NCBI GenBank assembly: GCA_977020255.1 | Contig: CDROCS010000799.1 | Span: 124,001-188,000, forward strand | Source of the DNA: Obrimoposthia wandeli | Taxonomy: Eukaryota | Direction: 5' to 3' | Length of the DNA: 64,000 nucleotides | Shown here: piece by piece, positions 16,201-60,292 of the stretch | Numbering within the stretch: the first letter of the stretch is position 1 | Layout: each line of letters opens with the position of its first letter | The notes under the pieces: model-generated | The model's input: the letters and a program-made list of their open reading frames with translations, nothing else | What the model was told of the DNA's origin: nothing | The model's database searches: none | Position numbers and translations under genes: made by a program

Positions 16201-16560
16201 AGCATCGCTTTAGGTAGCTCAACTGTGTCCCTTTAAATATTTCATTCTTTTTTACACTTTCAGTACTTTATTACATCATTATTATCCTTTTTATAGCAAA
16301 ATGTTTCTTTCTAAACTAATTTTCTAAGTCTTGATTTTGAAAAGTCAGATTCCGATATTGTTCGTCACTTTCATTTATTTATCCATTAATTCAAATATAC
16401 CCTTTTAAGGGTTGCTATCTACAACGATGCCTTCTATTTTGATTATTCCAACTGAAATCTCGTCATTATTGTTAAAATCTGATGCTTTGCCTTTGTGTGG
16501 TCCTGGTACGCTTGAAACGTTCATTCTAAATATGAACGGGTATGTAGGTGGATTCATGTT
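13300..16560 (-). mobile_element. Degenerate Ty3/Gypsy LTR retrotransposon internal region (gag, protease, RT; RNase H deleted)
   Basis: RT fragment KHKTTF...YEFEKIPFGLTRAPATFQSSMN...IVYINDIIIFS (14392-14742); protease KALFDTDSVVSI (15539-15727); gag-like start near 16550. Confidence 0.85.
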
Positions 16561-16619
16561 TAATTATTTGGCTTATCATCGATTTTTCAATTTCTAAATA
16601 ATTCATTTCCATATTTATT

Positions 16620-31779: not shown

Positions 31780-32275
31780 TTATTTATTTAATAAAGAAAC
31801 ATCATCCGTTAGCAATGGACCAACAGTATTTTCATACTTATCAATTATATACGCCCATTCACCGTAAAATGTTTTAAGTTGATCTTTATGAGCTATATGC
31901 TCTTTCTTGTGCCAACCGTCACGTCTAGCTAATATGTTTTTATTTTTGAAATAAACAGCTCGTACTCTATCCCAATATACTTGACTGTTGGTATCGAGTT
32001 CTGTTATTGGTTTTAACGTGCCTATAGGCAATTTCCATAACCAATCTGGATATTCCTCATCTGATTTCAATTTTATAGGATCTTCATCAACTCGATAATT
32101 AATGCAGCAGTAATTTGCTAGAATTTCAGGATCTGTTTCAACTTCTCGAACTTTTTTCTTCACTACCGCCGCAATTCCTAATTTCTCTAGAAAATATAAT
32201 CAAAATATTCATACCTTTAGCCTTTTTAGCATATGATCTAAAACATAAATCGTACAATAGATTAACTTTTAACAT
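31780..32275 (-). CDS. MRPL54: Mitochondrial ribosomal protein L54 (mL54)
   Basis: Exon 1 32275-32215 (MLKVNLLYDLCFRSYAKKAK), 28-nt GT-AG intron, exon 2 32186-31780 with ETDPEILANYCCINYRVDEDPIKLKSDEEYPDWLW, the family signature. Confidence 0.88.
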
Positions 32276-35013
32276 TTTTTAAATTTGCACATAATATAAA
32301 CAATAACTGATTAACCTCATATTGCAAATACATAAATTGTTATTTTTTTATTTAAGAAATTAATGACACGTTTATTACAATGCTAAAAAATTAATATCGC
32401 TCTATAATCATATTTTAAAATTCTAAGCTTTTTTACTTTTATTCTAATAATTTTTGTATCTTTGATAAAAACTTAACATCAAACAGTTACAAAAATTCGA
32501 ATTTGTTTCAAAATACTTTTATTTAGTGTTGGAATTATATAAAATATTCTTCATTTTAATTCTCTATTCAACATTTCCTTTTATACCTAGCATATGCCTT
32601 TTAATCGCTGCTATATATTAGGCCCGTCTGCACATTGTTCTTGACACATATATAAAAATACATCCAAAACGTGGATTGTTGGAGTTGTTTCACATAATGT
32701 TCAGGTTTCTAACTCATGAGTTCATAACAAAGTAAAGCTTATCAAAGTGATTATCCAAATTAATCTCAAGTCTGAAGGTGTAGCTATACTGTATTATTTT
32801 TAAATATTGGTGCTTGCTTAAACTTAATAGTCCTAAGTACAGTATTTATTTCAGAATCCAGAAATAAATAAAATTGTAATAGTGTGGAATTAATAATACA
32901 ATTTAACTTTGGACCATAAGTTAATAATAATTTTGATACTGCAGTGGTAAGTTGTTAAGTTTATCATGAATATTAAGCAGGATAATCAAGTTTACTTCCC
33001 TCAAGTACCCTTAATCTAAACAGATCGTTCAGATTGTCACTGGAGTCCCTCCCAGTTATAAGCTCAATAATTGGTTCAAAGTATCATGTATCCAACTAAA
33101 GTTACTATGAAGTAATGGCTCTGGTAATATATACTAAATATAATTTTCATACCTGTCTTAATGTTTTAATTGTAAAAAAACACTAAATTATTTGAAAAAT
33201 TCATATGTTGAATCGAAATGTTTCAAACCTATTTTGTAAAACTAACTTGATTCTCTACGATGATTAACAATGTTTCAACATATAACCTGGCGTGTATTCA
33301 TTTGATAATAAATTTCGTCATTACTAACTTGATATTTTACAATACATTCATTATTTATCTTACAGGTAGATGAATAGAGAAAAATCTCGGGTATAGTTTC
33401 AATAAAGTCAAGACGGAGTACTACTTTCTCACAAACACAACACTGATGTGAATTATTTAAAATCTATATATACTGAATGATCGATGAATTTAAATAAGCT
33501 CAAAATAATTATTGCACACGACTACTGGATTGTCAATTGAAGTTCTAACAAATTTTATAATATCTTCATCTTGTTCAACCGCCATTGGTATATGATATAC
33601 ATTGCTTTATATAATGAATAGCCATGATGAAATTTTTAAAATGGAGTTTTATTGGGTTATCGCTTTTTAACGAATTTGATAATATATATCGAGAAAATAT
33701 ACAAGTTACCTCATCAGACAAGACGACACAGACTTGAAAAAAATCTACCTTTGCAAATGCGGTTTATGACCAAAACCAATATACTTTCTATGTAATGATA
33801 CCTTTAAAATCTTCATTTATAACATCCATTTCAGAAAAATGAAGAGTCTTAGTTTTATTTATGTCATAATTTCGTTATACATAATGCTTTATTAAATTTA
33901 GTAGTCACACTAACATGAAAAGAAACGTTTATACTAAAAGTAAAATGTCTGACAAGATGAGTATAACTTAAAGGTAATAGCCAACACCAGGAAATCCAAG
34001 AATAGAATATTGTACTTGAGACATCTAATAACTGAAAATATTTCTAGTTTAAACATACAATCTTAAATCATAATCTGATAATTTAAATATATTTATTGTT
34101 TATTCAAATCGGCAAATACATTCAATAGATATTCAAAATGGATACTCCTTATTCTCTATAACAAATGTTTATTTGCAACCAAGTATCTTGCAATTTTCTA
34201 ATTATTATTAAAAAAATCAAATTGAATAAAACCTGATTTGAAAATTTTTTTTTTCTTTACGCATGTAAACATACTGACATTATTTACTGCGTTTGAAAGA
34301 TAAGTAACTTATATTACTTTTAACAAAACTTTTATAATTAATGCTTGCAATCTTCATAATTCACAACAGACATAAACACCCCACCACCACAAAATACTAT
34401 TTAACTTCATTTAAGACCCCTTAAAACTGAAAATGTCATAGTGCACCGACAATGTGAGGAAGTGCTTGAGAGGCCATCTGAGGGTCAACACGTACCCTTC
34501 GACAAGCATTATACAAACCGAATCGCGAAAAAAATCGCGACCTTCGGGTTTGAATTTTTCCCGTGTAAGTATTTATATCCAGATACACTCAAAAACTCAA
34601 GTTTTTTTTCTCATAATCTCTACCCTCTAGCTACACACAGTCGACAAAATCTTAACAAAATAGTAAAATTTTTGAATAAAATATTGTTTCTATCCAATGA
34701 TATGCATGCATTAAATCATCGTTAAAAACTTAAGAAAATACTATGGATTCTTAAATAAATCATTTGAATAACACGTTCTCATTAGACGATAAAAGAAGGG
34801 TTGGTCTGATTTTTGTGTATATAAGGAAAACATTTTTTAATTATTTTTCTTAAATAAAAAAAACCTAAATACATGTATGTCTTTTTTCAACAACATCAAT
34901 TTGAATGAAGATATGGAGGTGTAGCTGTATAGAGAACTCTCCAGTGCAGCATTGAACGCCACCATCGTCGCAGTATATAGACTTACTTAGTCAAGACTCG
35001 TCGGTGGTGAGCA

Positions 35014-35731: not shown

Positions 35732-36251
35732 TTTCTTTTTCAGAAACTTCAACTGGATATCGCACCATCGGTAACCTCATTGGAGAGGCTGATCAAACCT
35801 GAAATATTGGCGAGTCAATGCTGCCAGGAGATGCAAAGGAGTGAATTATGATATCTTGCGTCTCTGGATAATATTAAGGTAAAATATTTTAAATTAGAAA
35901 ATAAATGTAATTATTCTCATAGGAAGCCGACCAGGTGGGAGATATGCTGAAGAGTATGAAACATGAAATTAGCTGATTTGATATCCATAGCATCATCCAG
36001 ATCACCTTCTCCCTCATTTGTAACTTTCAATTTAACAAGAAATAAACTATAATTTAAATCAAGATATTGGGTATTGGATCCATTTATATTGAATTCTAAA
36101 TCAAGATAAAAAATATCCCGCTAACCGTATTTGTTGGGAAAATTTCCTGAAAACTAGCACTGTCAACCACCATCTGGGTATAGGTTTACCGAATATACTC
36201 AATTCAGTTTTAGCACAACTCATATTCTGAAATATTCTGATTTAAGCATTT

Positions 36252-40651: not shown

Positions 40652-40961
40652 TAAAATATCCCCATACTTGTGCTTTTCCTGTTGAACCCAAATTGCTTTT
40701 ATTAATGGAAGTTTATTCCCACCTATGAATATCGGTTCAGTAATGCTTGTGTAAATATAAATCTGATTACATGCATTAGTTATTTTAGGAATAATCTTTG
40801 CTTTGAAAACTATATATTTATTTTCAAATTAATTTTCTTTAAACCCGATAATTGTGGCTAATGATTTATCTATGATAACTTTAACAATATTTGGTTTCAA
40901 TTTGAATTAAATCAATTTATTAACTATTTTAAAGCTATCAAATACATTTGGTAACATAATT

Positions 40962-41504
40962 TTAAAAGTTTACACATACTTTCACTATCTGGAAAAAGAA
41001 AATCATTGGGGACTGAATATATTTTCCTCTTGCGTTTAGTGAATTTGTTTTTATATTGAAAGTAATTATTGGATACTTAATATGTTTATTCATAATTCCC
41101 GAAACCACAAATTTTCTTTCATTAGGTTTAGTCGGGAATCCATATTGTTCTGCAACAATCTCATCATTAAAAACTATTTCCAAAATTTTCCCTTGTCCTG
41201 CAATTTGAATTCGATTATCTTTATTTAAAAAGATTGGGAAATAATCCCTTGCCTTAATATGCGTCAAATATCCATCAAATCTGCTTGCCATAAATCATTT
41301 GGCCCGCTCGTCCTGTATGATCTCGTCGGAAACCGGCGTCTCATCGGTTTGTTTAAGCTGTAAGCTAATTGATTTTTCAACCTCACCTGAATTCTATAAT
41401 AATTTAATAATTCTATCCTTTTTCCATTTCTTCACCTCTCTTGCTAATTTAGAAACTCCTGTGTAACCAACGAGATGACTTGGATCGAACCATACTTTCT
41501 CCAT
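40962..41504 (-). pseudogene. Polinton integrase remnant (N-terminus MEKVWFDPSHLVGYTG plus C-terminal region; core deleted)
   Basis: N-terminus matches the intact INT start MEKIWNNPEDPDGYTG. The rve core is missing. Confidence 0.7.
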
Positions 41505-41600
41505 TACAACAAGACGATTTGATTTTTATATTCAATTTAGAAATAGTTGGAAGTGATCCCATAAAAAAATCATATTTTTGATTGAAATTCATGCTTATAA

Positions 41601-42025
41601 TCATCCTATTATTAGTCTGCTAGCAAGTGCACCAACTATTGAGCTAACAATCCGTACTAGGAATCCTAAAAATCCTCCAATTTGCTTATACAGGAACTTA
41701 CGTTTACCAGCTTGTGTTTTAGCGGGAAACAAAGCAAGAAGAGGTTTCTTATGTCGATTCATTTTAGTACGGGTACTTTATCGGAAACTATTTTCTGCAC
41801 CATATTAAGTAAATCATCTATTAAAAAAGTAGGAAAGGATTTAATAATAGTTGAACGTCGAATAGCAGGTGCATGCATAAGATAATTGAAATATGGACTA
41901 CTCCTAGATTTATTATTAACCATTCTTTTCTTATTTGATTTTTGAGCAACCATTTTTTTACACTCAAAACCGATTTAATCAATTTCTCGACTTCAGGTTT
42001 TAATAACTTTCTTTTTAAAACTCAT
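41601..42025 (-). pseudogene. Polinton pX-like virion protein with adenain site QIGG/F and amphipathic tail
   Basis: MSFKKKVIK... start; ends YKQIGGFLGFLVRIVSSIVGALASRLIIG; homologous to 55115-55528. Confidence 0.75.
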
Positions 42026-42655
42026 CTTCGAGAAACCGGATTCTTTGATTGTTTATAGATGGTAATACCAAATGGATTGAATATATCAGATTTAACTCTT
42101 AGGTTATCATGACAATCTTGGGTAAAATCAATAAAAATGTATCCATGAGGAATGGTAATTGCGTATTGAAATGCATAAATCAGGTAATTTCTATTATTCG
42201 GGAATGCTTGCCTTGCAACAAAATCAATAACAGTTTGATCACGTGGATTCTTGAAGAGAACAAGGTAATTTACATTTAAATTACGATTTCTATGATTCCC
42301 ACCTTGGTGAAATATATTTTGTATAATGAAAATAACAGTTACTTCATGATGTCTTGCTATTTTAGTGAATAAATTATTGAAATCATTCTCTTTATTTGCT
42401 TCTTGATACAATACATCAATAACAATAAAATCGTGTCGCTGTAATTGCTCAGACCAATTTTCGTCAAATCTATTAATAACTTTTATATTTTTGATTTTCT
42501 TAAATTCTTTACTAATTCAACCTGCCTCTCCATCTTCTCGCTGATGCCAGTATATCTTATTAAACTTATATCTAAAGTATTTATTATTTTGTAGTAACTT
42601 ACAAATAAAAAGAGTTTTTCCCGCTACTTATTTTTAAATTATTTTTGAAGTCCAT
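42022..42655 (-). pseudogene. Polinton A32-like packaging ATPase (disrupted)
   Basis: GKTLFICKLL...KIYWHQ...FTKIARHHEVTVIFIIQNIFHQ...LFKNPRDQ; highly similar to 54466-55113. Confidence 0.9.
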
Positions 42656-43069: not shown

Positions 43070-43657
43070 TTATACATGATAATGATTAAAAATACGTATT
43101 TCATTAAGCAAAGTTTCATTAGGTGCTGTAATACTACGTTTAGCTTTAACAAGATTACTAGCAGTGCTAATGCCCATTGAATGAGATAAAAATGCAATAA
43201 CAATACAAACAGCATGTAAACTCCTATAATGACCACTTACTAGAACTTTCCCACCATTTTGATAGTTTCTTTAATTATATTATTAGTCAGTTTATAATAT
43301 TGTAATATTGTTTCTCCTAATTTTGTATTTACAAAGATAGAAGTATATTTTAATTTCTTATAAGATATCTTATATACTGCAGATGTATTGATTATGTGTG
43401 TGAATTCTGATTTTAGAAGCTCAGTTTCATCAATTGCATCTCGATAATTCTCGATATATAATTGATTTACTAAAATCTCGCTCATTGGAGTTCTGTTTAA
43501 TCTTTTCACACTAAGTTGGATAAATCTAGCTCTAAAAAAACTATCAAAAGGTGGGTCATATGATCAATATGAACCATAAAATCCAAAGCGTTTAAGAAAT
43601 CTGATCGTTTGTTTATTCTTCATTTTTCACCGCTGCTGTTTCATTAAGTTTCTCCAT
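43070..43657 (-). pseudogene. Dual-specificity phosphatase-like (pseudophosphatase) gene inside Polinton 2
   Basis: PMSEILVNQLYIENYRDAIDETELLKSEFTHIINTS, then (after a frameshift) NGGKVLVSGHYRSLHAVCIVIAFL...ASNLVKAKRSITAPNETLLNEI, the DUSP fold signature. The catalytic HCxxGxxRS is replaced by SGHYRSLHA. Confidence 0.8.
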
Positions 43658-43694
43658 TTTATTGATAAAAAATTTAAAGCTATAAAAATATTGT

Positions 43695-44263
43695 TTATAA
43701 CTCAAAAAACAAAGATAAATCTATTTTTAGTAACATTAAAACTTTTTGCAAGTAATGTCTTTGTTTAGGAAAGAAATAACACAAGTGTGAAGATGTATAT
43801 TAAATAAAATATATTCAATAAGATATTCATATCCTAGTGACTTAACGCCAAGTATCATCACCTTCCCGCTCGCAAAAATGTTCACGCATAGAGGATTGTA
43901 TTTGGCATATCATAGTCTCGGAAAAAGTTCTGGTTCGTAAACTGCGTCCAATCCCATACTCTTGCTCATCTTGCTCAGGTTTATCGGTTTTCCAAATTAG
44001 TACTGACGCTGGTTGATTGGATTCTCTCGATTTTGACATTGACATCTAGCATAGCTTTACAGTCCATTATTCTACATGTTCCTTAATTATATTAAAAATT
44101 AAATGTAAAATAAATTACCAGATTTGAAAATTATAATATAATAATCTTCACACTTGAGCCAGTACTGGTGCGGCTTCGAATTCCGAAATGGTAAGTGTTG
44201 AATACCGCTTACAACCATTTCCTTATAATTAATTTTCACCAATTTAATATTGTGAAGTAACAT
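43695..44263 (-). pseudogene. TBP-like gene, copy 2, with a 37-nt intron (44082-44118)
   Basis: KINYK...KPHQYWLKCEDYYIIIFKSG/TCRIMDC...RIQSTSV...AVYEPELFPRL*YAKYNPLCVNIFASGKVMILG; one frameshift and one stop. Confidence 0.88.
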
Positions 44264-45247
44264 TTTTGATTATTATAAACTGATTCTTATATATTATTTG
44301 AAAATCTATTTTTAGACCACGTAATCTCTTTTGTTAATTGCCTATGCTATGAAATGTAATTTTTCTCACTCGTCTAATGATAATTGTCTTGCAATATGGA
44401 CAAGAAATAAGTCGAGCTGAACATTTAATGCATGTATTTAAGTGTCCACATGGTAAAATGCTACTGAAATCATATATGTCAAGCAAACAATACATTCCAG
44501 ATTTGGTAAAAGATATTCAAGATAATTTATAACATGACTTGGTTCAGGTTTTATTTGTAAAGAACTTAAATCCGTTAGAAACTCATATATAGAATCATAT
44601 TTTTTACCAAATGTTTAAAACCTATTAATTAAAACGGCTTTGATTCTTTCATGGCTATAATCACGTTTTAACAAAACGATTTGTCGAGTTTTCATTTGAA
44701 CATCAATATCATCATTACTAATATGATATTCAACAAAACATCCATTCTTGATACCCATACTAGACGCTTTAGACTCTTGTGTATGAAGAATTCTCTCTGG
44801 GATAGTATCAATAAACTCAAGACGGGGCACTGCTTTCTGACAGAAACAACATCGATATGAATTATTTCAAATATAAACATGTGTAATAAAATGTCTCCGG
44901 ATCTTTATGATAAAAATGCTGACAATGTCCCTGATCAAATTTCCCCAAAAACAACTGCAGAAATTCCAAAAAATTGCAAAACTTCTCAAAAATCGATCAC
45001 CTTTGCACTGCGATATTTCCCGCGATGGAAATACCAAGCTTCAGGTATTTATATTTTGAGCTATTTTCTACCAGTTCTTAATCTATTTTTAGATCAATGG
45101 ATTTCCCACCCGATAATTGGAATACTGAAAAAAAGCTCTAACAGCTTTTATTATTGTAAACATTGAAAATTTAAAGTCAGAATTTCTGGAAATTTTTGTC
45201 CAACAGTTGTTTTATATAGAAATTATACAAAATGACACAAGATCCCG

Positions 45248-45760
45248 ACACAGCGATCTCTTCTCCTCCATATCCGATCGCCACCGCCCATATGCCAAAT
45301 TGCACCACCAGCTCTCCTGCATCGGCGACCAAATATCACACAGTAGCACAATTCCTTTTGAAGCTGGATCCAGATAACGGTGCTACCATCGCGCTGCCAC
45401 AAGGAGACTGGTCGGAGGAAACCTGTGCAACTCTTGTAACGAGGTATTTATTTTTTATTTTTTATTTTAACTGTCTTATCTTTCCTTCCGCGGTAAATAT
45501 TTATTGCGAAATAAAAGATAAGATCTATTTGGCCGCCCGATGAGTCCGTAAGGACGAAACGGCCAAAAGAGCTGGTCGTCGCGGTCTTCTTAGAACTTGC
45601 CGCTCAATCGTGAGCATTTTGATTTTAATTAACATAATAATATTAATAGGATTTTTAATAACCATATTTTTTCCTTTCTTTTTTCTCTCTCAAAAATTCA
45701 AACACACATTTATTCCCCTCGAGCTCAAAGAAACGAACACTCACATATAATTATCAACCC
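45248..45760 (+). mobile_element. Hammerhead-carrying dispersed repeat, copy 2 (antisense insertion in the IAP gene)
   Basis: Homologous to 24183-24705. Confidence 0.8.
45531..45586 (+). ncRNA. Type I hammerhead ribozyme with U4C core variant
   Basis: GGCCGC-CCGAUGA-GUCC-GUAA-GGAC-GAA-ACGGCCA-aaagagc-UGGUCGU-C/GCGGUC; cleavage after 45580. Confidence 0.88.
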
Positions 45761-47569
45761 ATGTGGGAAAATTAGAGTTGTATCAAAATCAATTTTGCTT
45801 GTTACTAGTTTCAAATAATGGTACTTTTGACACATTCCTTTTCAAAACAAACGAACATGATGGAAAAATATCATATGCTGCTTCATTAGTTTAAGATACC
45901 ACTCCTATTCGGATAATGCTCCCCGACAGTAAACACATTTTATATTATCGCTTGAATCAGCATGCTTATAAAACCCTGTTTTTGCTCATGCTCTCTTATC
46001 CGCTAAACCAGTAAACTTTCTTCGTAATGTTTCTAATATTCTCTCTTCAGATATCATATATTCATTTATTCTCGAAATCTTATCAAAACGAAATCGTCTA
46101 ATGCTAAGTTCCCATTTTGCGAAACGTAATGTGCAACAAATTTAGTAGGCATAACAAGATATAATGAAAAAATTTTAGGCTTATATAATATTTGAAAATC
46201 TATTTTTAGATTACATTTCAAATTATCCCTACAAACATGGTCCCTAGATTGATTTTATTAAAAATAAATAATTAAGATAAAGCAAGCACATATATAGGTT
46301 CTGATAGTAATTTATATGCTAATATGGATTATAATATAAATAATCACAGAGAAAATATTAATCCAACACCTGAAACAATAACAAGGCCTATACGCGTAAC
46401 CGTAGAACGTAAGCCCTTCAAGGATATGATTAATACTAAACGATTTACATAAACAACATTATTAACCAATTAGAAACGAGCTTCACAGGACAAACAATTA
46501 AATATTTGAACTTTCAATTATAAATATGAATTTCAAAAATCAAAATTTCGAAAAGCTATATCAGTCTATGCATAAATATCACGGATATGATATGCATTTT
46601 TTGAATAAATCTCACAACTTTAATTTTATTTTTCCTGTCAACATAGAGACGCTTAGATTTGAAGTTAAAGTATAAAATATTCGGGATCAAATATGAGCAT
46701 CAAGAAAACAAATTCATAATCAAGGGACAAAATGTCAATTGCAAGCAGGAGAATGGAACAATATTCGATGGACCTCCTCCTAAACTAGAATGGATTTTCA
46801 AAATCAGAATTCAAAGATACAAGCCTTAAAAAAAAGAAGGGCCCTCTGGATTGATAACATCTATATGGAAAATAATTGAGGCAGTAAGAGTTGACTAATA
46901 CTATTTTATATGTATATCTTTGTTTTTTTCTTCTTTATAAAAATAGTAATAATTTAATAATACGTTATAAGAAAATGAGTGAAAAAGCTACCATTCAATC
47001 ATTAAAGACTAAAAAGACTAAAAAGGTTGAAAAAGAAATGAAGGGTGGAGGTGTTTTCATAGTATGTCCCTTTTATAGTAGGGAATATTTTAAGTAGATG
47101 GCTTGGTGAGGTTAATACTAGTAGTCTAAAATTGAAAAAGAATATGTATTATATTGCAGGTATACAAAAGGGGAATGGTAGACTTGATATTTATGTAGGA
47201 TTACATAAAGCATTCAGTGCAATTCAAAAGAAATATATATCTTGGTCCAAAATTTTTCGCTAAACAATCCAAAGACCTAAATTTAAAAACATAAAATTAA
47301 CACATGGTATATAATAAATATGTCGAACTTTTAAGTTTTTAAGTTTTTATGTTTTATAAAAATTTAAAGTTTTTGAAAATTTAAATTAAAATAATTTTTG
47401 AAAAATTTGAATTTGGTGCACATAAATAATGATACATTTAAACAAAAATGACCTTAATGCGTTCAAACAAAAGAATGACCTTCAAATGACGTACTCAGGA
47501 GAAATTTGTTGCCATGAGAACACACGCACACACACACGGCAACACGTGTTTCCATGACAACGGCCTACG

Positions 47570-47789
47570 TACTCGGGAGAATCTTTCCCTTTTGGTGGAT
47601 CTATTGCCTTGAGTCGAAGTCATCACTTCTCCATACTCATAATCATGTTACGGGACTATACTTGGGATCGGCGTGCAACCTTTGTAACATCGGCCGTAGA
47701 CTCTATCAAAATCCAAGCATTTCCACCGTGTTTCATAATCTCAAAGGATATGATTTACATCATATACTTAAATACGCGTTGGGTACATT
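47570..47789 (+). pseudogene. pPolB fragment (EndoVII insert / exonuclease region)
   Basis: HNHVTGLYLGSACNLCNIGRR...VFHNLKGYDLHHILKYAL matches DHDHFTGKYLGPACNECNLSRK...VFHNLRGYDLHHILKHAL of the intact element. Confidence 0.88.
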
Positions 47790-48960: not shown

Positions 48961-49684
48961 AGAGCAACATATACCCTTATGGTGTGGCAAGACACCTTTT
49001 ATGGTGTGACACCCTTATGGTGTGACACCCTTTAGGGGGAGGGGGAGGGGGGGGTCAAGTGATCTAGACTCCATCCTTCCTTGATATACTACTATGGTCG
49101 TCCATAGTTTAAAGGGTCAAGTGGTCTAGTCTCCACCCATCTTTTTGTGGTCTAGTCTCCACCCATCTTTTTGTGGTCTAGTCTCCACCCATCTTTTTGT
49201 GGTCTAGTCTCCACCCATCTTTTTGTGGTCTAGTCTCCACCCTTCTTTTAGTGATCTAGTCTCCACCCTTCTTTTTGTGGTCTAGTCTCCACCCTTCTTT
49301 TTGTGGTCTAGTCTCCACCCTTCTTTTTTGTAATCTAGTCCATAATGAAAATTTATGATAAAGTTCACACTTAACAATTAAGAATGTATGACGTAATCAT
49401 ACACACACTATTCTATGGGAAATTTATACTAAGTTCACTCTTATTAGTTAAGAATGTATTACGTAATCACACACATACTATTCTATGTGAAAATTTATGA
49501 TAAAGTTCACTCTTATCAGTTAAGGAATGTGGTTTTTAACACACACATACACTATTTTATGTGAAATTTAAACTAAAGTTCACTCTTATCAGTTAAGAAT
49601 GTATTACGTAATCACACACATACTATTCTATGTGAAAATTTAGATCAAAGTTTTTTCCCAGGCTTACACATCTAAAGAATTATG
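48961..49684 (+). repeat. Left terminal inverted repeat (16-bp, 24-bp and ~65-bp internal repeats)
   Basis: Reverse complement of 60293-61056; starts AGAG; contains a gtggtctagtctccacccatcttttt array and repeated TTACGTAA motifs. Confidence 0.95.
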
Positions 49685-49770
49685 TTAAAATTTGTATTAA
49701 ATCAAAAATTAAATCAAAAAAAAAATAAATAAGAAAGAAGTCAGAGAATAATACAAATTAAACACATTTA

Positions 49771-52700
49771 TTATGTTATTTCATAATGTCCATAAGCGCG
49801 GCTTCTATTTTTCTCGATCCAATAGCGCTTGTCATCTGATGAGCTGAGAGCAGTCTTTTGTATTATGATTGTGTATAGTTGATGATTTATTGTACCAAAC
49901 TTCTTTTGAGGTATAGTATATGCAATACCGTTTTTATACACGTCTAAATATGTTTGATGTACAACCGTTGAACCCTTAAGATTTACTCCTTTTGCTTTAT
50001 TATTTTCAAAGTCATCTTCAAACTTAAGTGAATAACATTTACAAAGTAAGAAAATCCATTCTTTATACATGCGTCCTTCCGATTCATCTTTAAATAAACC
50101 TATTTTACTATTAAATGTATTAGAATATAATGGATCATTCACATTATAATTTGACGTATCTAATAATCCATCTGCAATCATTTTTGGTAACAACTGTTTT
50201 CTTAAATTAACGTTTTTACATTCCAAAAAGAATGAATCGGTATCACCGGCAACTATATTAATTGAACAATTAAATAAATTACGATATATTTGCAAATCAT
50301 GATACTGAAGAGTATACATTCGTAATTTGCTAAGGTCTAGTACAGCTTGGCCTATATAATTTGGTCGATCGAGACAAATAAAATCTTTTCTTAATAAAAC
50401 TGCTATTAAATTATCATGAATTTCAATTGATCGTTGAAACATAGGTTTGCTAGTATATGTGATTAATTTTGTAGAACTAGTGCAGATGCGAAGATTCAAT
50501 CGTTTCTTAACATTTTCAACAGTCTTTCCATACAAACTAACATTTTTAAGTTTATAAAAATCTTTGTCACATTTATTCGTTGCTTGTGATCTCATTTCTG
50601 AATTATATTCTATATATTCTGCGAATATCTTAGCCTGAGAGAATTTTACTGCTCGATGAATAATTGTTACCACTGCTCCTAAACTAACATACATCTGCAA
50701 TAGTCTCCAATGAATAACATAATGACTTTTTGGCGAATGTGTCATTAAAAGTTTTTCAACTTTTTTACCAGGTGGACATTTCTTTTCTGGAGCTATAGGA
50801 AGATCATCTAAAATGTCATGAAGGTTTTCTGGTATTATCAAGTCTACTTCCATAAAATAACCATATTCAATATGTTCCATGTTTACATTTTTCATTTCAT
50901 GCAATATTTTGTTTAATTTTATATCATCAAGAATCCATTCAAAATCTCCTTTTGGTAAAGGTTGATCAAGAGCCCATCCATATAAATTATTAACATCTAT
51001 ATATAAAAGACTTGTTTCTTCATCAGCGACTACATGATGCTTATTGACAAATGTCATTCCTCCTCGTATACCCGAAGAAATCATGTTGTACATTTCAGGA
51101 TCCTGCATCAGTTCAACCTTATGTTTTAACATTTTTAGAGCACTTGCCCAACTCAACCCAGGAATGCTAAAAAGTTAAGTGGTTCTAAACCATCTTCACT
51201 GAGAGCTTTTCTTCTGAATGTTTGAAATACGTCAGCTAATAAATATACGTCAGTCTTTAAGTAAACTAACATATAATCCAACATATTTCTACAATTGGTT
51301 ATTTTCCAAACATCTTGTGCTTTTTGATATTCAGTGTCTGTGATTTTATCATTCCATTTTACTGGTAAACTTAACTTATTCTGGAGAACATTTAATGATG
51401 TAGCAAAATCATATGGGAATATTCCTTTGCCATCAATAAGTTTAGATGGAAAAACTGATCTTGTTAATGGAATAGTTGGTAATTTAGTTGCTAAATTTTC
51501 CAAAGATGATTGTAAAAATTGCAAAGAATCTATAAATCTCAGAGTTATTTGACCTAATCTTACAATCATGGCTTGAAACTTTTCCGTTGATTGTGGTATA
51601 ATATTTATATCCCAGTCAGTAAATTTATTCAATGCATGTTTTAAAATATGATGTAAATCATAACCTCTGAGATTATGAAACACAATAGGTAAAGTTGGAC
51701 GAAGTTTTCTTGATAAATTACATTCATTGCATGCAGGACCTAGATATTTACCAGTAAAGTGATCATGATCTTTAACATATTTTTCAGATGATTCGTGACA
51801 TAAATAACATTCATCGGCATTGCTAAATGTATGAATCTCTGCATTTGTTAAGGGAATCATTACGTTTTTAAGAGCATCTAAATACCATGGTAAAACCTTT
51901 TCTTTAGCCAAGTTCTCTATTGACTGAAGAAACTTAACTATGCAGTCATCACCAACATTATATTGATACTGGGTTTCAATTTCATCTGTACTCATAAATA
52001 ACATGCCAGATGCGACAGGCATATGCTTTTGATGATAACTCTCATCTGGTACTAATACAGATTCAAAATCAGCGTAAACGACATATTTCGGTGATATAGT
52101 TTTTGACCAATCATTGAATTTAACGTACTTATTCTTAGGCATAGTATACATTGTAGTGCTTTCTTGATTATAGTCACATAAAACTTTATGCTTTTCTAAT
52201 GACAAATCGGTTTTGAAACCATGTAAACACTTTTCACACCATTTTCTGCTAATTCTAGTCGTTTCAGTTCGAATATTTAATAGCCGGTTAAGACAAGTTA
52301 TTCCTATATAATGAAACCGATCCTTGGATTCTAGTAACAATAAATTAACTATAGTTCCTTCCTTTATTTTTGATTTGTATGCAATATCAATATAAGGATT
52401 CTTGATAACATCAGTTTTTGATTCTTTTTCACTTATCTCGTTGAATATAAATACATTTATTATTATACCAGGATTTTACCGTTCAAATTTTGATATATTT
52501 GATATTTTCATAGGCATGTCTTCGGAATTATATACAAAATCATTTAAAAATCTTTCATATTGGCTTGGTCTATTTCTATGTAATTCTATTTCATTATATT
52601 TAAGTATTGACAATATTGCATAAATAAAGCAAAGATTATCAGAGTTTTGAATATTGACGACTGCTTTAGATTTTGTAAGAGAATTTGATGATTTAATATA

Positions 52701-53495
52701 TGAATGACCTGACAATGCACAAATTTGACTATATTTAGTAACAATAAATGCATATTCAAGTATATTCATCAATTTCCAACCACTACCTTTTTCTGAATAT
52801 TCTTCAACTTTATTTTCCATTGTATCTTCCATTTCTGAAATTATAGCATGTGAAAAAATCATTGCTCGATGCGAAGCATACCATTCTTTAGTTTCTCCAT
52901 CATTCTTTTCAAACCTCATTCTAATGATGTATTGTATCTTTGCTTTTCCCATTAATTGCACTATTCTTTCTAGTTCGTTTAATAATGAAACTGGAACCTT
53001 AAGACTTACAAGATTGAGATGATCTACTTTCATGGATATCATTGAATAACTATTTTCTAATGATGTTTTAGTATGTATATTATCATTTATTTTACGTTTT
53101 CGTGACGTAATTGTAGGAGCTGAAATTACTATGTTTGATGGTACATTAATTATATCAGTTCTTTTGCTTAAAGCCGGTACTTTAAATAATTCTTTCTTAC
53201 TAACATTTTCATATGCTTTTAAATGACTAACATGTCGACTATAAAATAAGTTGTAATCAACATTTTCAGTGCTTAAACATTGTGGACATATGAAATAATT
53301 TATCTTTTTGTTTGAATAACCATAATATTTTTTCATTATATCATGACATTCTTGAGGATTAAAATGTGTATCCGAAAAACAAATATTTGAATAAGTTTTA
53401 CATATACTCATCTGATGATATGATTGATTTGATTGGACTGATTGGATATTGGTTGATTTGTAGACTGAATAAAAATAAAATATATATAAATACAA
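49771..53495 (-). CDS. Protein-primed family B DNA polymerase (one nonsense at 52476-52478, one -1 frameshift near 51170)
   Basis: Exo YADFES, FHNLRGYDLH, RFIDS, YLKTDVYLLADVF; EndoVII DHDHFTG...CNECN; pol YIDVNNLYGWA, KLKNVSLYGKT, AGDTDS, KAKGV. The first ATG in the open frame is MSICK (~53411). Confidence 0.95.
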
Positions 53496-53517
53496 TAATT
53501 TAATTATTTTACTTACA

Positions 53518-53982
53518 ATGTTAACAAATATTAATTATAAAGGAATTTGCTTAGATGATGTATCCAAATTAAAATTTCGAATACGACCAGAACAATACGT
53601 TTATAAAGCCAAAGATTATACAATACTTATTTTTAGAAATAAGAAATGCAGGATTATGGGATGTAAGGTACCTATTAAAAATATTTCTTACCCTTTAAGA
53701 ATAAATATACTTGGTATTCAATCAATTACGATATGTGAAAATTTAGAACAAAGTATCAATCTATTTATATTATCGAATGTATTACGTAATGCATGTTCAT
53801 TTGACCCTGAGGTTTTCCCAGGCTTAAGATTAAATATTTTCAATCCATTGTGTGTAAATATTTTCACATCTGGAAAGGTCGTAATTTTAGGTCTTAGAAA
53901 TTTAGATTTTCAAGATCAAGTTAACGATATCATGACATACATTAAAAAAAAATTATATAAATACGAAACAATTTCTAATTAA
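53518..53982 (+). CDS. TATA-binding-protein-like (TBP fold, both repeats), intact 154 aa
   Basis: TNINY...ILIFRNKKCRIMG (repeat 1; cf. QNIV...ALIFSSGKMVCTG) and IQS...FDPEVFPGLRL...VNIFTSGKVVILG (repeat 2; cf. YEPELFPGLIY...LIFVSGKVVLTG). Confidence 0.9.
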   Translation: MLTNINYKGICLDDVSKLKFRIRPEQYVYKAKDYTILIFRNKKCRIMGCKVPIKNISYPLRINILGIQSITICENLEQSINLFILSNVLRNACSFDPEVFPGLRLNIFNPLCVNIFTSGKVVILGLRNLDFQDQVNDIMTYIKKKLYKYETISN

Positions 53983-53997
53983 ATCATTCAATTTTAA

Positions 53998-54384
53998 ATG
54001 TCTTATAAATCCGTTCAAAAGTATTACGAGTATGATATGTTCTTCTTGGCATCTGCATGGATTCAACCAATGACTATGCCAGTGACATTATCAAAAACTT
54101 TGTACAATTACCGAGTCTCTGATTTTGATGACAAAGACATTCAACAATTCAATGAAATCGTCAAATATTTGAAAATTGATGTTGAACTAGAGAATGAGGG
54201 TATATTTATGCGCGGAGATAAGTGTAAATTTTATGATTGTGGTGGAACAAAGATTTCGGATATTCAAGAAGATGGAAGAAGTTGGATGCTCGAAATAAAA
54301 TTTCTCGGATATAAAATAAATAAACAGAATGAAACAACTCTCATCTGGAGGATTCATACAGCGACCGAATATTTTGATGTTTAA
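53998..54384 (+). CDS. Unknown 128-aa Polinton protein, possibly OB-fold ssDNA-binding
   Basis: Intact ATG ORF with a beta-rich C-terminal pattern (KFYD...WMLEIKFLGYKI...TLIWRIH). The fold is inference only. Confidence 0.55.
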   Translation: MSYKSVQKYYEYDMFFLASAWIQPMTMPVTLSKTLYNYRVSDFDDKDIQQFNEIVKYLKIDVELENEGIFMRGDKCKFYDCGGTKISDIQEDGRSWMLEIKFLGYKINKQNETTLIWRIHTATEYFDV

Positions 54385-54465
54385 TAAATATTTAATAAAA
54401 TGTTGTTATTGTTATAAACATGTACTTATTCTGATATATTTATTTTATATTAATATTTATATATA

Positions 54466-55113
54466 ATGTTATTAACAAACATTTCAACTTTTCAAGTAGT
54501 AGGACCAAGTGGTAGTGGAAAAACTTTATTTGTTTGTAAATTATTAAATTCAAAAATGTTTAAAAATAAATTTAATAAAATATATTAGCATCAAGGTGGT
54601 GATGGAGAAGCTGGTTTAACAAACCAAGAATTTAATAAAATAAAAAACATTAAGATTATTAACGGTTTTGATGAAAATTGGACGACAAGACTCGTAAAAG
54701 GTGATGTAATTGTTATTGATGACTTATATCAAGAGGCTAACAAAGAATCTGATTTTAATGATTTATTTACAAAAATTGCAAGACATAGAGAAGTTACTGT
54801 AATTTTTATAACCCAAAATTTATTTCATCAAGGAGGAAATCATCGTACTCGTAATCTTAATGTACATTATTTGATTTTATTCAAAAATCCTAGAGATCAA
54901 ACAGTGATAGATTTTATTGCTCGTCAAGCATTTCCTCATAACAAGAGTTATTTAATTGATGCGTTTCATGATGCTACATCTTTACCACATGGTTATTTAT
55001 TTTTAAATTTTACTCAATCATGTCCTGATGATTTAAGAATTGTTACTGATATATTTAACCGTAATGGTATTACAGTCTATAAACAAATAAATAATAATAA
55101 TGTTTTAAAATAA
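54466..55113 (+). CDS. A32-like packaging ATPase with one premature TAG (54586-54588; TGG in the paralog)
   Basis: Walker A VVGPSGSGKT, Walker B IVIDD, ARHREV..ITQN, LFKNPRD. Confidence 0.93.
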
Positions 55114-55114
55114 A

Positions 55115-55528
55115 ATGAATTTTAAAAAGAGTATTCTTAAACATAGTAAAAGGACAGATAAAGATGAAGTTAAAAAATTAATAAATACTGTATTATATGA
55201 TCGTAATAATATTGAATTTTCAAAAAGTTTACCTTATTTTAAAACCTTAATTGACGTACCAAAAACGAATAAAATGAAAATGTTGAAATCATTTCCAATT
55301 TATGTAGTTGATGATTTAATAAAAATTTTAAATAAAATAATTTATGGTAAAATTAAACCTGATGATAATATTTTAAAATATAAAAATTCATTAATAAATT
55401 TAGCAAATTCACGTGGTAAAATTAATAAAAGAAACATTATTTATAATCAAAATGGCGGATTCATATTGGCCCTACTGCCCGCTTTAGCATCAGTAATAGC
55501 TAGTGTTATATCTTCAAGATGGGGATAG
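55115..55528 (+). CDS. pX-like virion protein with adenain cleavage site QNGG/F and C-terminal amphipathic peptide
   Basis: ...YNQNGGFILALLPALASVIASVISSRWG; position between ATPase and INT. Confidence 0.7.
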   Translation: MNFKKSILKHSKRTDKDEVKKLINTVLYDRNNIEFSKSLPYFKTLIDVPKTNKMKMLKSFPIYVVDDLIKILNKIIYGKIKPDDNILKYKNSLINLANSRGKINKRNIIYNQNGGFILALLPALASVIASVISSRWG

Positions 55529-55672
55529 TTGTCTTAATAACGAAAATAATTACATTCATTCGTTTTATACAAACATATAAACAGATTAAAATATATTTAA
55601 CTTTTATAATAATGGGGATAAACAATACAAAGTTGTCTAACTTATTTATAAATTTTAATTCTTCATGCTGCA

Positions 55673-56697
55673 ATGGAAAAGATTTGGAACAATCCAGAAG
55701 ATCCAGACGGTTATACAGGGTTAGAAAAATTGACAAAAAGAGTCAAACAATCAAAAACAAACACACAAAAATGGTTAAGAAATGAATTATCATATAGTCT
55801 GAATAAACCTTTAAGACGTAAATTCCCTACTAGATCATATAAAACTAATGGTATTAATTCGTTATGGCAAATGGATTTAATGGAAATGATTCCTTATTCT
55901 TCAGTAAATAACGGATTCAAGTATATTTTAACTTGTATTGATGTATTTAGTCGTTTTGCAAGGGCAGTTGGTGTTAAATCAAAATCAGGTATTGATTTAT
56001 TACATGCAATAGAATCTTTAATTGTTGATGATGTACCAGTAAATATCCAAACCGATGAAGGTAAAGAAATTTTAATTCACATGTTAAGAAATTATTTAAA
56101 ACTGAAAATATCAATCATTATTCAGTATATTCTCAATATAAAGCTGCAGTAGTTGAAAGATTTAATAGAACGTTAAGAGAACGGTTAAAGAAATATTTTA
56201 CTAAACAAGGTAATAAGAAATGGGTGAATGTATTACCAAAAATTATTTATGCTTATAATAATTCTAAACATAGAGGTTTAGATGGTTTAAAACCTGTAGA
56301 TGTAAATAATAAAAATGAATTTGATATTTTGTTGAAACAAAATCTAAAAGAAAAGAAACTTAAATCTAAATATAAAATTGATGATTATGTTCGAATATCA
56401 AAAATAAGTACAAGTCCATTTATTAAAAATTTTAATCAAAATTGGAGTGATGAGGTTTTTCAAATTCATGATATTAATTATAAACAAAATCCAATAATGT
56501 ATATTTTAAAAGATATTGATAACGTCATCATCAAAGGAAAATTTTATAAACAAGAGTTACAATTAATTGATAAACCTAAACTATATCGAATACAAGAAAT
56601 TTTAGAAACTAAAGGTCGTGGTAAGAATAAACAATATTACGTAAAGTGGCACGGATACTCTGAACCTTCTTGGATATTTGCTTCTCAAATTGAATAA
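55673..56697 (+). CDS. Retroviral-type (rve) integrase with chromodomain; one -1 frameshift at ~56072
   Basis: WQMDL...CIDVFSR...QTDEGKE / KAAVVERFNRTL; C-terminal YRIQEILE...YYVKWHGYSEPSW. Confidence 0.95.
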
Positions 56698-57695
56698 TGT
56701 CAAAATATATTATTTTACCTAGTAATAGTTGTCCAAGTACTCAACCTAACAATACAGCCAATCAATTTACTGTAGATTGGGAAAACTCTCTAAATTTAGT
56801 TGCCTTGACTGAATTTGTATTTAATTTTACTCCTTTAACAATACAAACTAATTCAAAAATACTTTATAAAACGGAAAAGATAGAAATGAAAACTTTCGAT
56901 GTATCTTTTGCAATTTTAAATGGATTAATTTTTAATAATTTAAATACTGTTTTCAATTTCAAAATTACAAAGGGTCAAAAATTAGAAATAAGTACAATTA
57001 ACAGTATTCATCGAATGTTGTTAAAATTCGAAACTTTAGAAGAATCAAAAATTATAGGTTTTAATGAAATACAAAAAATTTCTAGTCATGTTATAACAAG
57101 TGATGAAATTGTTGACATAAATAAAAATATTCATGCTAAAATGAGAATTACAATTTATTATTTAGCTGAATATGAATACGAAATAAAATTTAATCAAAAT
57201 TATTTGATACAAGATAGTACTTCATTATGTAATATTATAGCCAGTAAATGTAATGAAATTTTTAAAAGCTGTAATATAGATTCAGACGGATTATTTGATA
57301 TTTTATTAAAGAAAAATGTAAAATCAGTTTTATTTGACGAAAAACTTGCATCTTTATTAGGTTTTAATAATGTTTTCTTTGAGAAACGAATTAAAGGTTT
57401 TCAAAAACCAACACTTTCTAGCTCATATAATCAAATGTATATTTATACTAGTTTAACAGATTCTGTCTTAGTAGGATCTGATTATGTTCCACTGTTAAAG
57501 TCTATTTGGTTAAAATCATTAAAATATCGATATGGAGATGTAGTAAATGTTAAAATTGATAATCCAATGTACTTGAAAATGAGAGATTCAAGTATTAATA
57601 GAATCGAGGTAAATATACGTGATGATTCTGGTAATTTAATTCCATTTTCATATGGAGCAAAAACTAGTTTAACTCTTCATTTACGTAAAGTATAA
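56697..57695 (+). CDS. Minor capsid protein (penton)
   Basis: IILPSNS...NNTANQFTV...VALTEF N-terminus and MYIYTSL...VG...PLLK...MYL...I..IEVNIRDDSG.LIPF C-terminus, typical of Polinton pentons. Confidence 0.85.
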   Translation: MSKYIILPSNSCPSTQPNNTANQFTVDWENSLNLVALTEFVFNFTPLTIQTNSKILYKTEKIEMKTFDVSFAILNGLIFNNLNTVFNFKITKGQKLEISTINSIHRMLLKFETLEESKIIGFNEIQKISSHVITSDEIVDINKNIHAKMRITIYYLAEYEYEIKFNQNYLIQDSTSLCNIIASKCNEIFKSCNIDSDGLFDILLKKNVKSVLFDEKLASLLGFNNVFFEKRIKGFQKPTLSSSYNQMYIYTSLTDSVLVGSDYVPLLKSIWLKSLKYRYGDVVNVKIDNPMYLKMRDSSINRIEVNIRDDSGNLIPFSYGAKTSLTLHLRKV

Positions 57696-57734
57696 ACAAT
57701 ATAAATATATTTAAAATATAAATATATATATAAA

Positions 57735-58138
57735 ATGAATACATCAATTATAAAATTTTATAGCAAAAGTCAACAGGGCGGTGAACTTCCCTATTTCATT
57801 GGTAAACAATATGGATCTGGTTGGTATCAAACTATTTCTAGATTAGCTATTCCATTGTTAAAAAAGTTGGTTTATCAGCAGCTACAAGTGCTGCCAATGT
57901 AATTGGTGAAACGCTAGGAACAGCGTTCACAAATCCCAAACACATAATTTCATCTCTCAAAGAAAATACAATCAAAGAAGTCAAAACTTTGATTCCAAAA
58001 TTAAAAAATAATGCTGTTGATAGTTTAAATAAAGTCGCAAATTGTGTTGAACAAAATGGAAAGGGTCTTAAACGTAAAAGAAATAATTTAAATAGTATAA
58101 ACAAACGTCTTAAAGGTACTATTTTCCAAAATGACTAG
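57735..58138 (+). CDS. Virion core/cement-like protein with QxGxG protease sites (frameshift near 57862)
   Basis: QQGGELPYFIGKQYGSGW...RLAIPLLKKVG...QNGKGLKRKR. Confidence 0.7.
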
Positions 58139-59351
58139 TATAAAATCTGAATTGTGTATTTTCGATAGACCACTACCTCAAGTAGTGATTGAAAATTCAT
58201 GTTTTGAAGAAATATTTCCAATCAATTCAATTACTGGAAAAAATTTAAATGACATAGAATTTAATATTCATGCATCTGAAGAAGATTATCTGGATTTGAA
58301 TGATACTTTGTTAAATATTAAATTAAAAGTTGTAAATGAAGATGGTACTGATTTAATGAAAGATAGTGATGTAACTCCAGAGAATTACATGTTTCAAACT
58401 TTGTTTAGAGATGTTATTCTAACACTTAATAATGTAAAGGTTGAAGGAGGAAATGGAACGTATACTCATAAGGCTATATTCGATACTCTTTTGAATTTTA
58501 GTAGTGATACCAAGTATACTAACCTTGAATGTAGTGGGTATGATGATGAAGCAGAAAATCGTAAACAATGGATTAGTGAATCTAAAATATTTTCATTATG
58601 TAATTCAATTAGATTAGATTTCTTCGAACAACCAAAATATTTGATTCCAGGGATTAATGTTCATTTGAGATTTATGAGAAATCAGCATAATTTTTCGCTC
58701 TATTCAGAAACTTCAAAATCAATTATTCAAATTCTAGATGCTAGATTGTATGTTAGAAGAGTAAAAGTTGATTCTTCAGTAATGATTGGACATCAGTTAG
58801 GTTTGCAAAGTCAGAATGCAGTTTACCCAATTAGAAAAACTCAGTTAGTAACATATTCAATTCCTCAGGGTTCTTTGGAACTTAATAAAGATCAAATATT
58901 CGGAGACTATCGTTTACCCAAGTTCATTTTGATTGCTTTCAAAGATACACCTCAGGGTGGTAAGGAATACAAAGTTAAATCTTCTACATTCAATACATTT
59001 AATGTTTCAACAATATCATTAGCTAGAAATACAGATTATCGAGAAACTTATAATCTAGATAATAACAATTTTTCATTAGCATATATGCAGTCAATTATTC
59101 GAAATATGAATATTTTAGATAAAAACGTGAATAATGGTATCAGATTTTCTGATTTTAAATCAGGAAGTTCAATTTTCACTTTTCTATTAGCACCAGATTT
59201 TGATATAAACACTACTCAAGTGCCTAAAACTGGTAATTTAAGACTTGAAATTAGATTTAATTCTCCTTTGACCGTTCCAACAAGTGTTTTGATTTACGGA
59301 ATATTTGATTCCGAAATTCAGATTACGAAAAATAAAACTGTGATTGTATGA
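58131..59351 (+). CDS. Major capsid protein (double jelly-roll), intact 406 aa
   Basis: KSELCIFD...Q...E..P...IEF.I....YLDLNDTLL...LF.D..L.LN...FFEQPKYLIPG...LRF.R...A.YP pattern of Polinton MCPs. Confidence 0.9.
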   Translation: MTSIKSELCIFDRPLPQVVIENSCFEEIFPINSITGKNLNDIEFNIHASEEDYLDLNDTLLNIKLKVVNEDGTDLMKDSDVTPENYMFQTLFRDVILTLNNVKVEGGNGTYTHKAIFDTLLNFSSDTKYTNLECSGYDDEAENRKQWISESKIFSLCNSIRLDFFEQPKYLIPGINVHLRFMRNQHNFSLYSETSKSIIQILDARLYVRRVKVDSSVMIGHQLGLQSQNAVYPIRKTQLVTYSIPQGSLELNKDQIFGDYRLPKFILIAFKDTPQGGKEYKVKSSTFNTFNVSTISLARNTDYRETYNLDNNNFSLAYMQSIIRNMNILDKNVNNGIRFSDFKSGSSIFTFLLAPDFDINTTQVPKTGNLRLEIRFNSPLTVPTSVLIYGIFDSEIQITKNKTVIV

Positions 59352-59724
59352 AGTAAGCTTATTTTATATTATATTCTTTATTAAAATTAGTACTTTAGAA
59401 ATTCATAAATCCGGAAAAATATTATTGAATAATAAATTTAATGGAGTATATTCATTGGATAAAATTCCATCATTAAAACCCGGAGGTTACATTATCAATA
59501 CTCATACTTCAAATCTACCAGGCGAACATTGGATAGCAATATTCGTTGACAGATTCAAGATTCGAGTGTTTGATCCTTTTGGATTCTATTATCCTGCAAA
59601 GTTGGTGTCTACACTTGAAAAAGAAAACATTCCAGTCTACTATAATCGAGTTAAATGTCAGAATCCATTAACTAAAAACTGCGGACCTCTGAGTCTTTTA
59701 TGGTTGAAACTTCAACACAAATAA
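59348..59724 (+). CDS. Adenain-like cysteine protease with a 38-nt intron (59353-59390)
   Basis: INT...PGEHWIAI...FDPFG...CQNPLTKNCG (His/Asp/Gln/Cys). Splicing gives an ATG start, MNTLEIH. Confidence 0.92.
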
Positions 59725-59778
59725 TTTTAAGTATAAACAAATATATCATTTTAGTATTTCATTTTATTTTATTTTCAA

Positions 59779-60231
59779 ATGGCTTTTATTGATTTAGAAT
59801 GTTTTATTGATAATAATGGAGAATATATTCCAAAGGAATTATGTATAATGTATGTGAATGATATGACTTGTCCATTTCATTACGTGTTTAAAAATCAAAT
59901 ACCATGGAGTAGTTTATCATTTACAGTTAAAAGAAAAAATCTATATTTGATAAATCATCATCATCAGTTATCCTGGTTTGAAGGTGAAAGCTCTGATATT
60001 CATATTGATGATGTTGAAACAATATTCTATGTTATGGATTCTATTGATGGAAAGAAAATTAATTTAGTGAAACGAATGTTTCCAAATTTGAGAATTGTGA
60101 ATTATAATAAAAGTTTCAAAAATTTAAAGAAAATGCCAAAAAATATTCGATGTCCGTTTAGAAAACACGGAAAACATTGTGCTTATTTGAAATGTTTTTC
60201 TCTATGTATTGATTATGTAAATTGTATATAA
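59779..60231 (+). CDS. DEDD/DnaQ-like nuclease-fold protein with C-terminal Cys/His cluster
   Basis: FIDLECF...PKEL...PW..L...HHHQLSWFEG...CPFRKHGKHCAYLKC. Confidence 0.7.
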   Translation: MAFIDLECFIDNNGEYIPKELCIMYVNDMTCPFHYVFKNQIPWSSLSFTVKRKNLYLINHHHQLSWFEGESSDIHIDDVETIFYVMDSIDGKKINLVKRMFPNLRIVNYNKSFKNLKKMPKNIRCPFRKHGKHCAYLKCFSLCIDYVNCI

Positions 60232-60292
60232 ATATATTTATTAAGGATATTTTATTTTAATATATAATTTATGTTATTTAAATAAATTTTAC

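Follow-up and report, generated by a model that had tools for sequence, protein, structure and literature searches.

Polinton-borne IAP and pseudo-DUSP genes in Obrimoposthia wandeli: probable capture from a Burro-like retroelement polyprotein

Why should a Polinton carry an inhibitor-of-apoptosis (IAP) gene together with a dual-specificity phosphatase (DUSP)-like gene that has lost its catalytic residues, and where would it have obtained them? The question is raised by a 64-kb stretch (C799:124001–188000; hereafter ‘the window’) of the 1.35-Gb, AT-rich genome of Obrimoposthia wandeli. The window holds two Polintons: a family-A element bounded by terminal inverted repeats (TIRs) at 48964–61060 and a decayed minus-strand copy of family B (A, B, B′, C and D are working names for the Polinton families, B′ being the sister family of B). 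In the latter, the minus-strand order is IAP (46152–44334), a TBP-like gene (44242–43805), the DUSP-like gene (43657–43070) and then the packaging ATPase. What is preserved here is the cargo block of a high-copy Polinton family, in a broken copy. Judging from sequence comparisons, we think it probable that the IAP and the dead DUSP were captured from the giant polyprotein of a Burro-like long terminal repeat (LTR) retroelement and served to keep the host cell alive during replication.

Whether the two genes belong to the element at all is best judged from its other copies. When the genome was searched at the DNA level, the DUSP region drew 2,456 first-look candidates and the IAP region 1,941 – figures that are not copy numbers – and 40 were scored for each. 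Linkage was read from the 19 best non-self DUSP loci, with 10 kb mapped on each side (two of them, L009 and L015, look like duplicates). The first-pass annotation of the window had held that its proposal of Polinton cargo would fall if other copies showed the genes unlinked to core genes, or as syntenic host genes invaded by Polinton pieces; what the copies show is the ATPase directly downstream of the DUSP in 15 of 19, TBP upstream in as many and a whole or partial IAP upstream in seven. It had also proposed a search for copies with both genes between TIRs, and in two ~16.3-kb B′ copies (C760 and C399) IAP, TBP, DUSP and core genes do lie together inside TIRs flanked by 6-bp duplications. Because of this fixed order with core genes and the location inside TIRs, the evidence supports both genes as element cargo rather than syntenic host genes. 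The coordinates likewise bear out the earlier placement of the DUSP-like gene between TBP and the ATPase, all co-oriented; the IAP, described as immediately upstream and co-oriented within 43070..46100, is upstream on the same strand, with TBP lying between it and the DUSP, and begins ~50 bp outside that range.

Long TIRs were present in three of six extended pairs (two of B′, one of family C), the duplications being judged by eye in C760, C399 and C728. A TIR search covering 10 kb of flank on each side of 20 copies found no long family-B TIR, nor did one of two extended family-B pairs, and one family-B copy (L005) has short inverted matches at both ends. The cargo differs by family – IAP and DUSP in B and B′, IAP alone in C and D, neither in A – as does the position of the IAP relative to TBP, the TIR-bounded family-C copy reading TBP–IAP–ATPase without a DUSP. 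The remark that the intact element lacks both genes, and that the slot is variable, thus stands, since the family-A element gave no IAP or DUSP match. Within family B itself, one shared deletion has removed most of the IAP in six of the 19 copies (L003, L004, L006, L007, L008 and L010); it joins two short similar sequences, from window position 44383 to 46094, and its junction letters were read for four copies.

As for the core genes, DNA_pol_B_2 is matched in the family-A element (E 1.5e-14), and pPolB homologues lie in cis in B and B′ copies, the gene being lost from the window copy. The integrase is recognised in a B′ copy (rve, E 2.1e-14), the ATPase scores over the Pox_A32 cut-off (27.6 bits) and the protease falls just under that of Peptidase_C5 (20.7 bits against 21.3). 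The putative capsid genes gave Capsid_N at E 0.023 in one copy as their sole family signal, with no PDB or PHROG support, and we label them as capsid genes provisionally, from their position and general background. Every Polinton family examined has a TBP-like gene (in the window’s family-A element at 53479–53982), and an upstream motif is common to TBP and the cargo genes.

What, then, do the two genes encode? The DUSP-like protein is a DUSP domain by sequence, as are STYX, MK-STYX and the atypical DUSP22, DUSP19 and DUSP15; its best PDB matches are DUSP22 (E 1.8e-10), DUSP19 and DUSP15, and the P-loop quoted in the first-pass annotation is present and aligns without gaps to that of DUSP22. 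The P-loop was surveyed at 30 loci, 28 of them readable, with a search pattern that demanded His at +1. No copy has the catalytic Cys (Gly in 26, Ser in 2), so that the replacement of Cys by Gly noted earlier is as in STYX. No copy has the P-loop Arg either (His in 27, Asp in 1), nor is there an Asp in the general-acid segment in any of 29 rows. In these two losses the pseudo-DUSP differs from STYX, as it does in having a Cys one residue before the catalytic position (24/28), with no Arg six residues after that Cys. Nothing points to a descent from STYX, in comparisons that included no STYX sequence. The window’s own P-loop is atypical at two positions, the others having this Cys at −1 in 24/28 and Gly at +3 in 21/28. 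STYX keeps its P-loop Arg for phosphate binding; with that Arg gone, docking or scaffolding is a more likely role than that of a STYX-type decoy gripping phosphate, as had been suggested. The dead DUSP would then be a non-catalytic binding protein that competes with active DUSPs by docking. A word-based homologue search found no relatives of it.

That the pseudo-DUSP is under selection is indicated by its substitution pattern. Pairwise comparison of B with B′ puts the ratio of nonsynonymous to synonymous substitution rates (dN/dS) of the DUSP at 0.38 (10 pairs) and 0.31 (5 pairs) and that of the IAP at 0.30 (12 pairs) and 0.33 (7 pairs), beside 0.26 for the integrase, 0.27–0.29 for the putative capsid genes, 0.29 for the protease and 0.13 for the ATPase; both cargo genes are shown to be under purifying selection between the subfamilies, at ratios close to those of core genes. 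The DUSP also has the element’s motif, as first reported: TATAAACA lies at 43692–43699 on the DUSP coding strand, 42 nt before the ATG, and recurs in nine of 13 start regions read (9/10 in family B, 0/3 in the sister family); in the window it is enriched, with 20 occurrences against 9.7 ± 3.0 after shuffling. In front of the IAP stands, in place of TATAAACA, the longer motif common to it and TBP.

The uninterrupted copies of the IAP have a single frame of about 330–340 codons, and the gene can for this reason be called intronless, in agreement with the first description. They contain one canonical BIR over the Pfam cut-off, with Cx2Cx16Hx6C spacing, and a C-terminal RING (zf-C3HC4_3, also over the cut-off). 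Of the BIR...BIR-UBA-RING layout initially read, one BIR and the RING therefore stand; Pfam matches neither a second complete BIR, this segment being truncated and altered in its spacing, nor a UBA domain in these copies. The product would be a ubiquitin ligase of the BIR-RING type, dampening the apoptotic or stress signals triggered by element replication.

The search for the origin of these genes leads to a quite different class of element. A genome search with DSPc gave 14,213 first-look candidates in long frames, belonging to a giant env-bearing Gypsy polyprotein of very high copy number (read at L134–L135 and L160; C399:424–441 kb). Its order is zinc knuckle, then in one frame fusion glycoprotein, BIR, RING, protease, reverse transcriptase, RNase H and integrase, followed by a pair of DUSP domains of which the first has the full motif and the second is degenerate; MATH, BCL2, ankyrin and dUTPase gave no Pfam match in the parts scanned. 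The Burro elements of planarians are described as having an in-frame env between gag and pol, together with a BIR and a RING (PMC6431247), and the giant element has the same layout in a Gypsy polyprotein. We accordingly call it ‘Burro-like’, a name given by layout and by comparison with the published description. Its IAP module is present in lineages only 65–70% alike in DNA. One B′ Polinton (C728; L148 8715 / L153 3985) is inserted in the first BIR of the giant element, with a 6-bp duplication (AATGTC), and so the two types of element do come into contact. The window itself contains a decayed, older Burro-like piece (14100–16600, minus strand), in which a separate BIR-RING module precedes protease and reverse transcriptase; its DNA identity to the 39 other places scored is 64–79%.

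The alignment between the Polinton IAP and the giant element’s BIR-RING module runs over the full length (165 bits, 32% identity over 366 columns), and the same query scored 77 bits or less against 29 public IAPs, among which no viral IAP was matched. Three Polinton IAPs reached 121–164 bits against the giant module and 72–81 against the best of the 29, and even the linker alone gave 52 bits as against 26. The two groups form a clade at 100/100 in a tree from the long alignment, and again at 100/100 in a RING-region tree (10 of the 29 outgroups, with a bootstrap not fully settled); Polinton IAPs from B, B′ and C form one clade (93/83). Common to the Polinton and giant IAPs, and lacking in the 29 public ones, are an N-terminal extension, a degenerate second BIR, the linker and the C-terminal end. 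A common origin of the Polinton and retroelement IAPs is thus strongly indicated by the sequences.

For the DUSP, a common origin is suggested in the same way. The pseudo-DUSP scores 71.7 bits against the first DUSP domain of the giant element; the best single-domain public score was 59.5 (among the top 150 of 1.84 billion protein representatives), a two-domain public protein reached a summed 64.0, and the three host-type DUSP12-like loci compared gave 36.5, 15.0 and 6.4. The degenerate second DUSP of the giant element, at 0.2–0.7 bits, is ruled out as the source. Beyond this genome, word-based searching found no relatives of the IAP among longer proteins (of at most 2000 residues, which put giant polyproteins out of reach). 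When IMG/VR was scanned with the IAP alignment and with the DUSP, no relative emerged, by a word-based method that misses distant kin, and the ESM Atlas yielded nothing beyond generic clusters of IAPs and DUSPs.

Since the nearest relatives detected for the cargo belong to this genome’s own giant retroelement, two unrelated elements have likely exchanged host-manipulation genes. The transfer would have run from retroelement to Polinton, with the DUSP taken from the same donor as the IAP, and the captured IAP would have gained the Polinton upstream motif that it has in common with TBP. The retroelement IAP keeps a longer second BIR and the retroelement DUSP its full motif; it is simpler to assume capture from the retroelement, because its versions are less eroded, its module is present in diverged lineages and the Polinton cargo is variable. 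In a planarian, Polintons and LTR elements are reported to be repressed by PIWI and de-silenced during differentiation (PMC8532177), and so both element types would share cells; the IAP of Burro1 is reported, second-hand, to protect stem cells (PMC13465017). A tentative extension is that the retroelement supplied IAP and DUSP as a survival kit in shared stem or germ cells, the IAP being kept for survival and the DUSP turned, under selection, into a triple-dead decoy, possibly in competition with the retroelement’s active DUSP.

Several results weigh against capture for cell survival. The long-alignment IAP tree came with a long-branch warning. The Polinton and giant DUSPs are only 29% identical; a tree with 30 outside rows groups them at 86/85, with unstarred support, but they stay apart in a quick mixture-model tree that included 55 outside rows. 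Host cIAP or XIAP could not serve as an outgroup: none was recovered in genome searches swamped by element copies, a BIR family search returning a survivin-like and a BIRC6-like locus (labels assigned by reading) and then element copies; with a mollusc IAP as query, the four loci read held nothing but element RINGs. For that reason, two captures from one divergent host gene are conceivable. As to function, the Polinton BIR lacks the acidic pair found before the Pro in cIAP and NAIP BIRs, a pair that presumably takes part in peptide binding, so that its loss may weaken binding; the anti-apoptotic activity of the Polinton IAP is therefore not assured. The IAP-less variant has itself been amplified (six of the 19 copies). 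Finally, dN/dS within family B is 0.5–0.7, which implies that choosing open frames lowers the ratio somewhat.

Among the alternatives, the one that survives best is that this is an infectious polintovirus moving between cells or animals, with the IAP and pseudo-DUSP directed against antiviral apoptosis – the lifestyle to which the first-pass annotation took the cargo to point. Between B and B′, purifying selection has acted on the putative capsid genes, the protease and the ATPase, and particles are thus plausible; yet capsid conservation cannot separate infection from spread within one animal. IAP homologues occur in several Polinton families of this genome and have been reported in adintoviruses (PMC8502044), but the closest cargo relatives found here belong to an LTR retroelement and the IMG/VR scans gave no relative, within the reach of a word-based method. 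The amplification of IAP-less variants and the existence of a family with neither gene also speak against it. The cargo does not support an infectious lifestyle, which we regard as possible but doubtful.

It is unlikely that the Polinton and the retroelement each took an IAP and a DUSP from the same divergent host genes, their retrocopies or a third virus. No host cIAP was sampled, only three host-type DUSP loci were compared and the DUSP trees disagree, all of which leaves room for such independent captures; against them stand the oddities along the whole IAP, common to both elements and lacking in the 29 public IAPs. The reverse transfer, from Polinton to retroelement, is improbable: Polintons do insert into the giant element, and the single clade of Polinton IAPs across B, B′ and C (93/83) makes them old too, but erosion has gone less far in the retroelement versions, with their longer second BIR and complete DUSP motif. 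That the pseudo-DUSP is a neutral passenger, merely decayed, would fit the loss of every catalytic residue and its absence from families A, C and D, but is highly improbable given a dN/dS of 0.31–0.38, near that of core genes, between two subfamilies both lacking the catalytic residues, and given that the gene has its own TATA-like motif. Syntenic host genes hit by Polinton pieces, a reading for which no favourable point was found, are refuted by the ~2,000 first-look candidates for each gene, their fixed order with core genes and their location inside TIRs.

How does capture from the retroelement fit known systems? Baculovirus and entomopoxvirus IAPs have a BIR-BIR-RING layout. The Polinton IAP has their short, intronless BIR...RING layout but one canonical BIR, and the closest kin found for it are not viral. 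Polintons or Mavericks (adintoviruses) are known to carry IAP and Bcl2 homologues as accessory genes (Starrett et al. 2021, PMC8502044), and the elements described here have in common with them pPolB, integrase, an A32-like ATPase, an adenovirus-like protease, TIRs, the 6-bp duplication and the accessory IAP. They differ in having an IAP whose kin is an LTR-retroelement module, and with it a dead DUSP; the word ‘phosphatase’ does not occur in the main text of PMC8502044. Burro, for its part, has in common with the giant element the polyprotein, zinc knuckle, in-frame env, BIR, RING and the succession of protease, reverse transcriptase, RNase H and integrase. What the giant element adds is a full-motif and a degenerate DUSP after the integrase (‘phosphatase’ is likewise absent from the available text of PMC6431247).

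An IAP in Polintons is therefore already known; new are the kinship of the Polinton IAP with a giant retroelement module, as the sequences suggest it, and the accompanying dead DUSP. A literature search that lacked most subscription papers found no report of a Polinton DUSP or of cargo shared by Burro and Polintons, and the source of Polinton IAP cargo had not been traced in the literature searched. If an IAP, and possibly a DUSP, is truly common to an LTR retroelement and Polintons, this would be dated gene flow between an RNA-cycle and a DNA-cycle element in one host. Stem-cell protection is ascribed second-hand to the Burro1 IAP in planarians; if the present host is a triclad, as its low GC and the Burro-like element suggest, IAPs of Polintons may be another factor of this kind and a possible confounder of knock-downs. 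A selected pseudophosphatase in a mobile element, moreover, is directly testable.

The remaining features of the family-B copy can be followed from its left end (47345–47640, minus strand), a TIR region at which family-B homology stops at 47629–47640 and which has an inverted match to the far end of L005; the terminus, the one end retained, lies near 47638 and begins AGT. Next come two broken plus-strand open reading frames (ORFs): a small conserved Polinton ORF without assigned function (46903–47230), detected by tblastn with a natural copy, and another conserved ORF (46553–46895) that we provisionally label ‘SSB-like’, family scans having given nothing over the cut-off. Promoter-like motifs, whose function is presumed, precede the IAP (46180–46214) and TBP (44286–44320) on the minus strand; the former is a near-copy of the latter.

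The minus-strand cargo genes of the window are pseudogenes, the IAP in three tblastn pieces with five stops and the DUSP in four with one stop. The 5′ part of the IAP, with the canonical BIR (45770–46152; three stops), corresponds to a Pfam BIR at E 3.6e-11 to 4.3e-14 in uninterrupted copies, and the 3′ part (44334–44881; two stops, one frameshift) comprises the degenerate BIR-like Cys/His segment, the linker and the RING (zf-C3HC4_3, E 6.9e-8). TBP (43805–44242) is broken too and matches Pfam TBP in other copies; it is followed by the TATAAACA motif and by the broken pseudo-DUSP (43070–43657), whose sister-family copy exceeds the Pfam DSPc cut-off (43.3 bits). Further along the minus strand are the matched part of the packaging ATPase (42040–42546; Pox_A32 over the cut-off in other copies) and remnants of a conserved ORF, the integrase (41267–41504) and a putative minor capsid gene (together 40652–42031). 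A remnant of the putative major capsid gene (35950–36176, minus strand) is parted from the rest by a retroelement-like stretch, judged by eye from its ORFs.

The two parts of the IAP are separated by a dispersed repeat of ~880 bp (44884–45762, plus strand), recognised from its junctions and genome candidates (456 at first look, 40 scored) and lying outside the cargo proper. With its 6-bp target duplication (CATGTG) and its absence from the other aligned copies, it is ruled out as an intron. It contains a hammerhead-like three-way junction at ~45531–45586 (fold z −2.0; Rfam Hammerhead_3 at 20.8 bits, under the gathering threshold of 48.5) and two ORFs without a Pfam match, and may be a Penelope-type terminal repeat. 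The repeat is represented again at 24183–24704.

Polintons of different families are often nested or lie within 10 kb of each other, at many loci. The right TIR of the family-A element abuts the start of another TIR to form a palindromic junction (60990–61180); that junction recurs at two further loci, and one family-C end has a palindrome like it (L006 3115–3314; L052 2948–3179; L141 7870–7990). It could be a by-product of replication or integration. Another decayed Polinton remnant (32802–33484, minus strand) has an IAP linker fragment next to a pPolB fragment, and a host-like ORF (31780–32199, minus strand) matches the mitochondrial ribosomal protein family PF08561.

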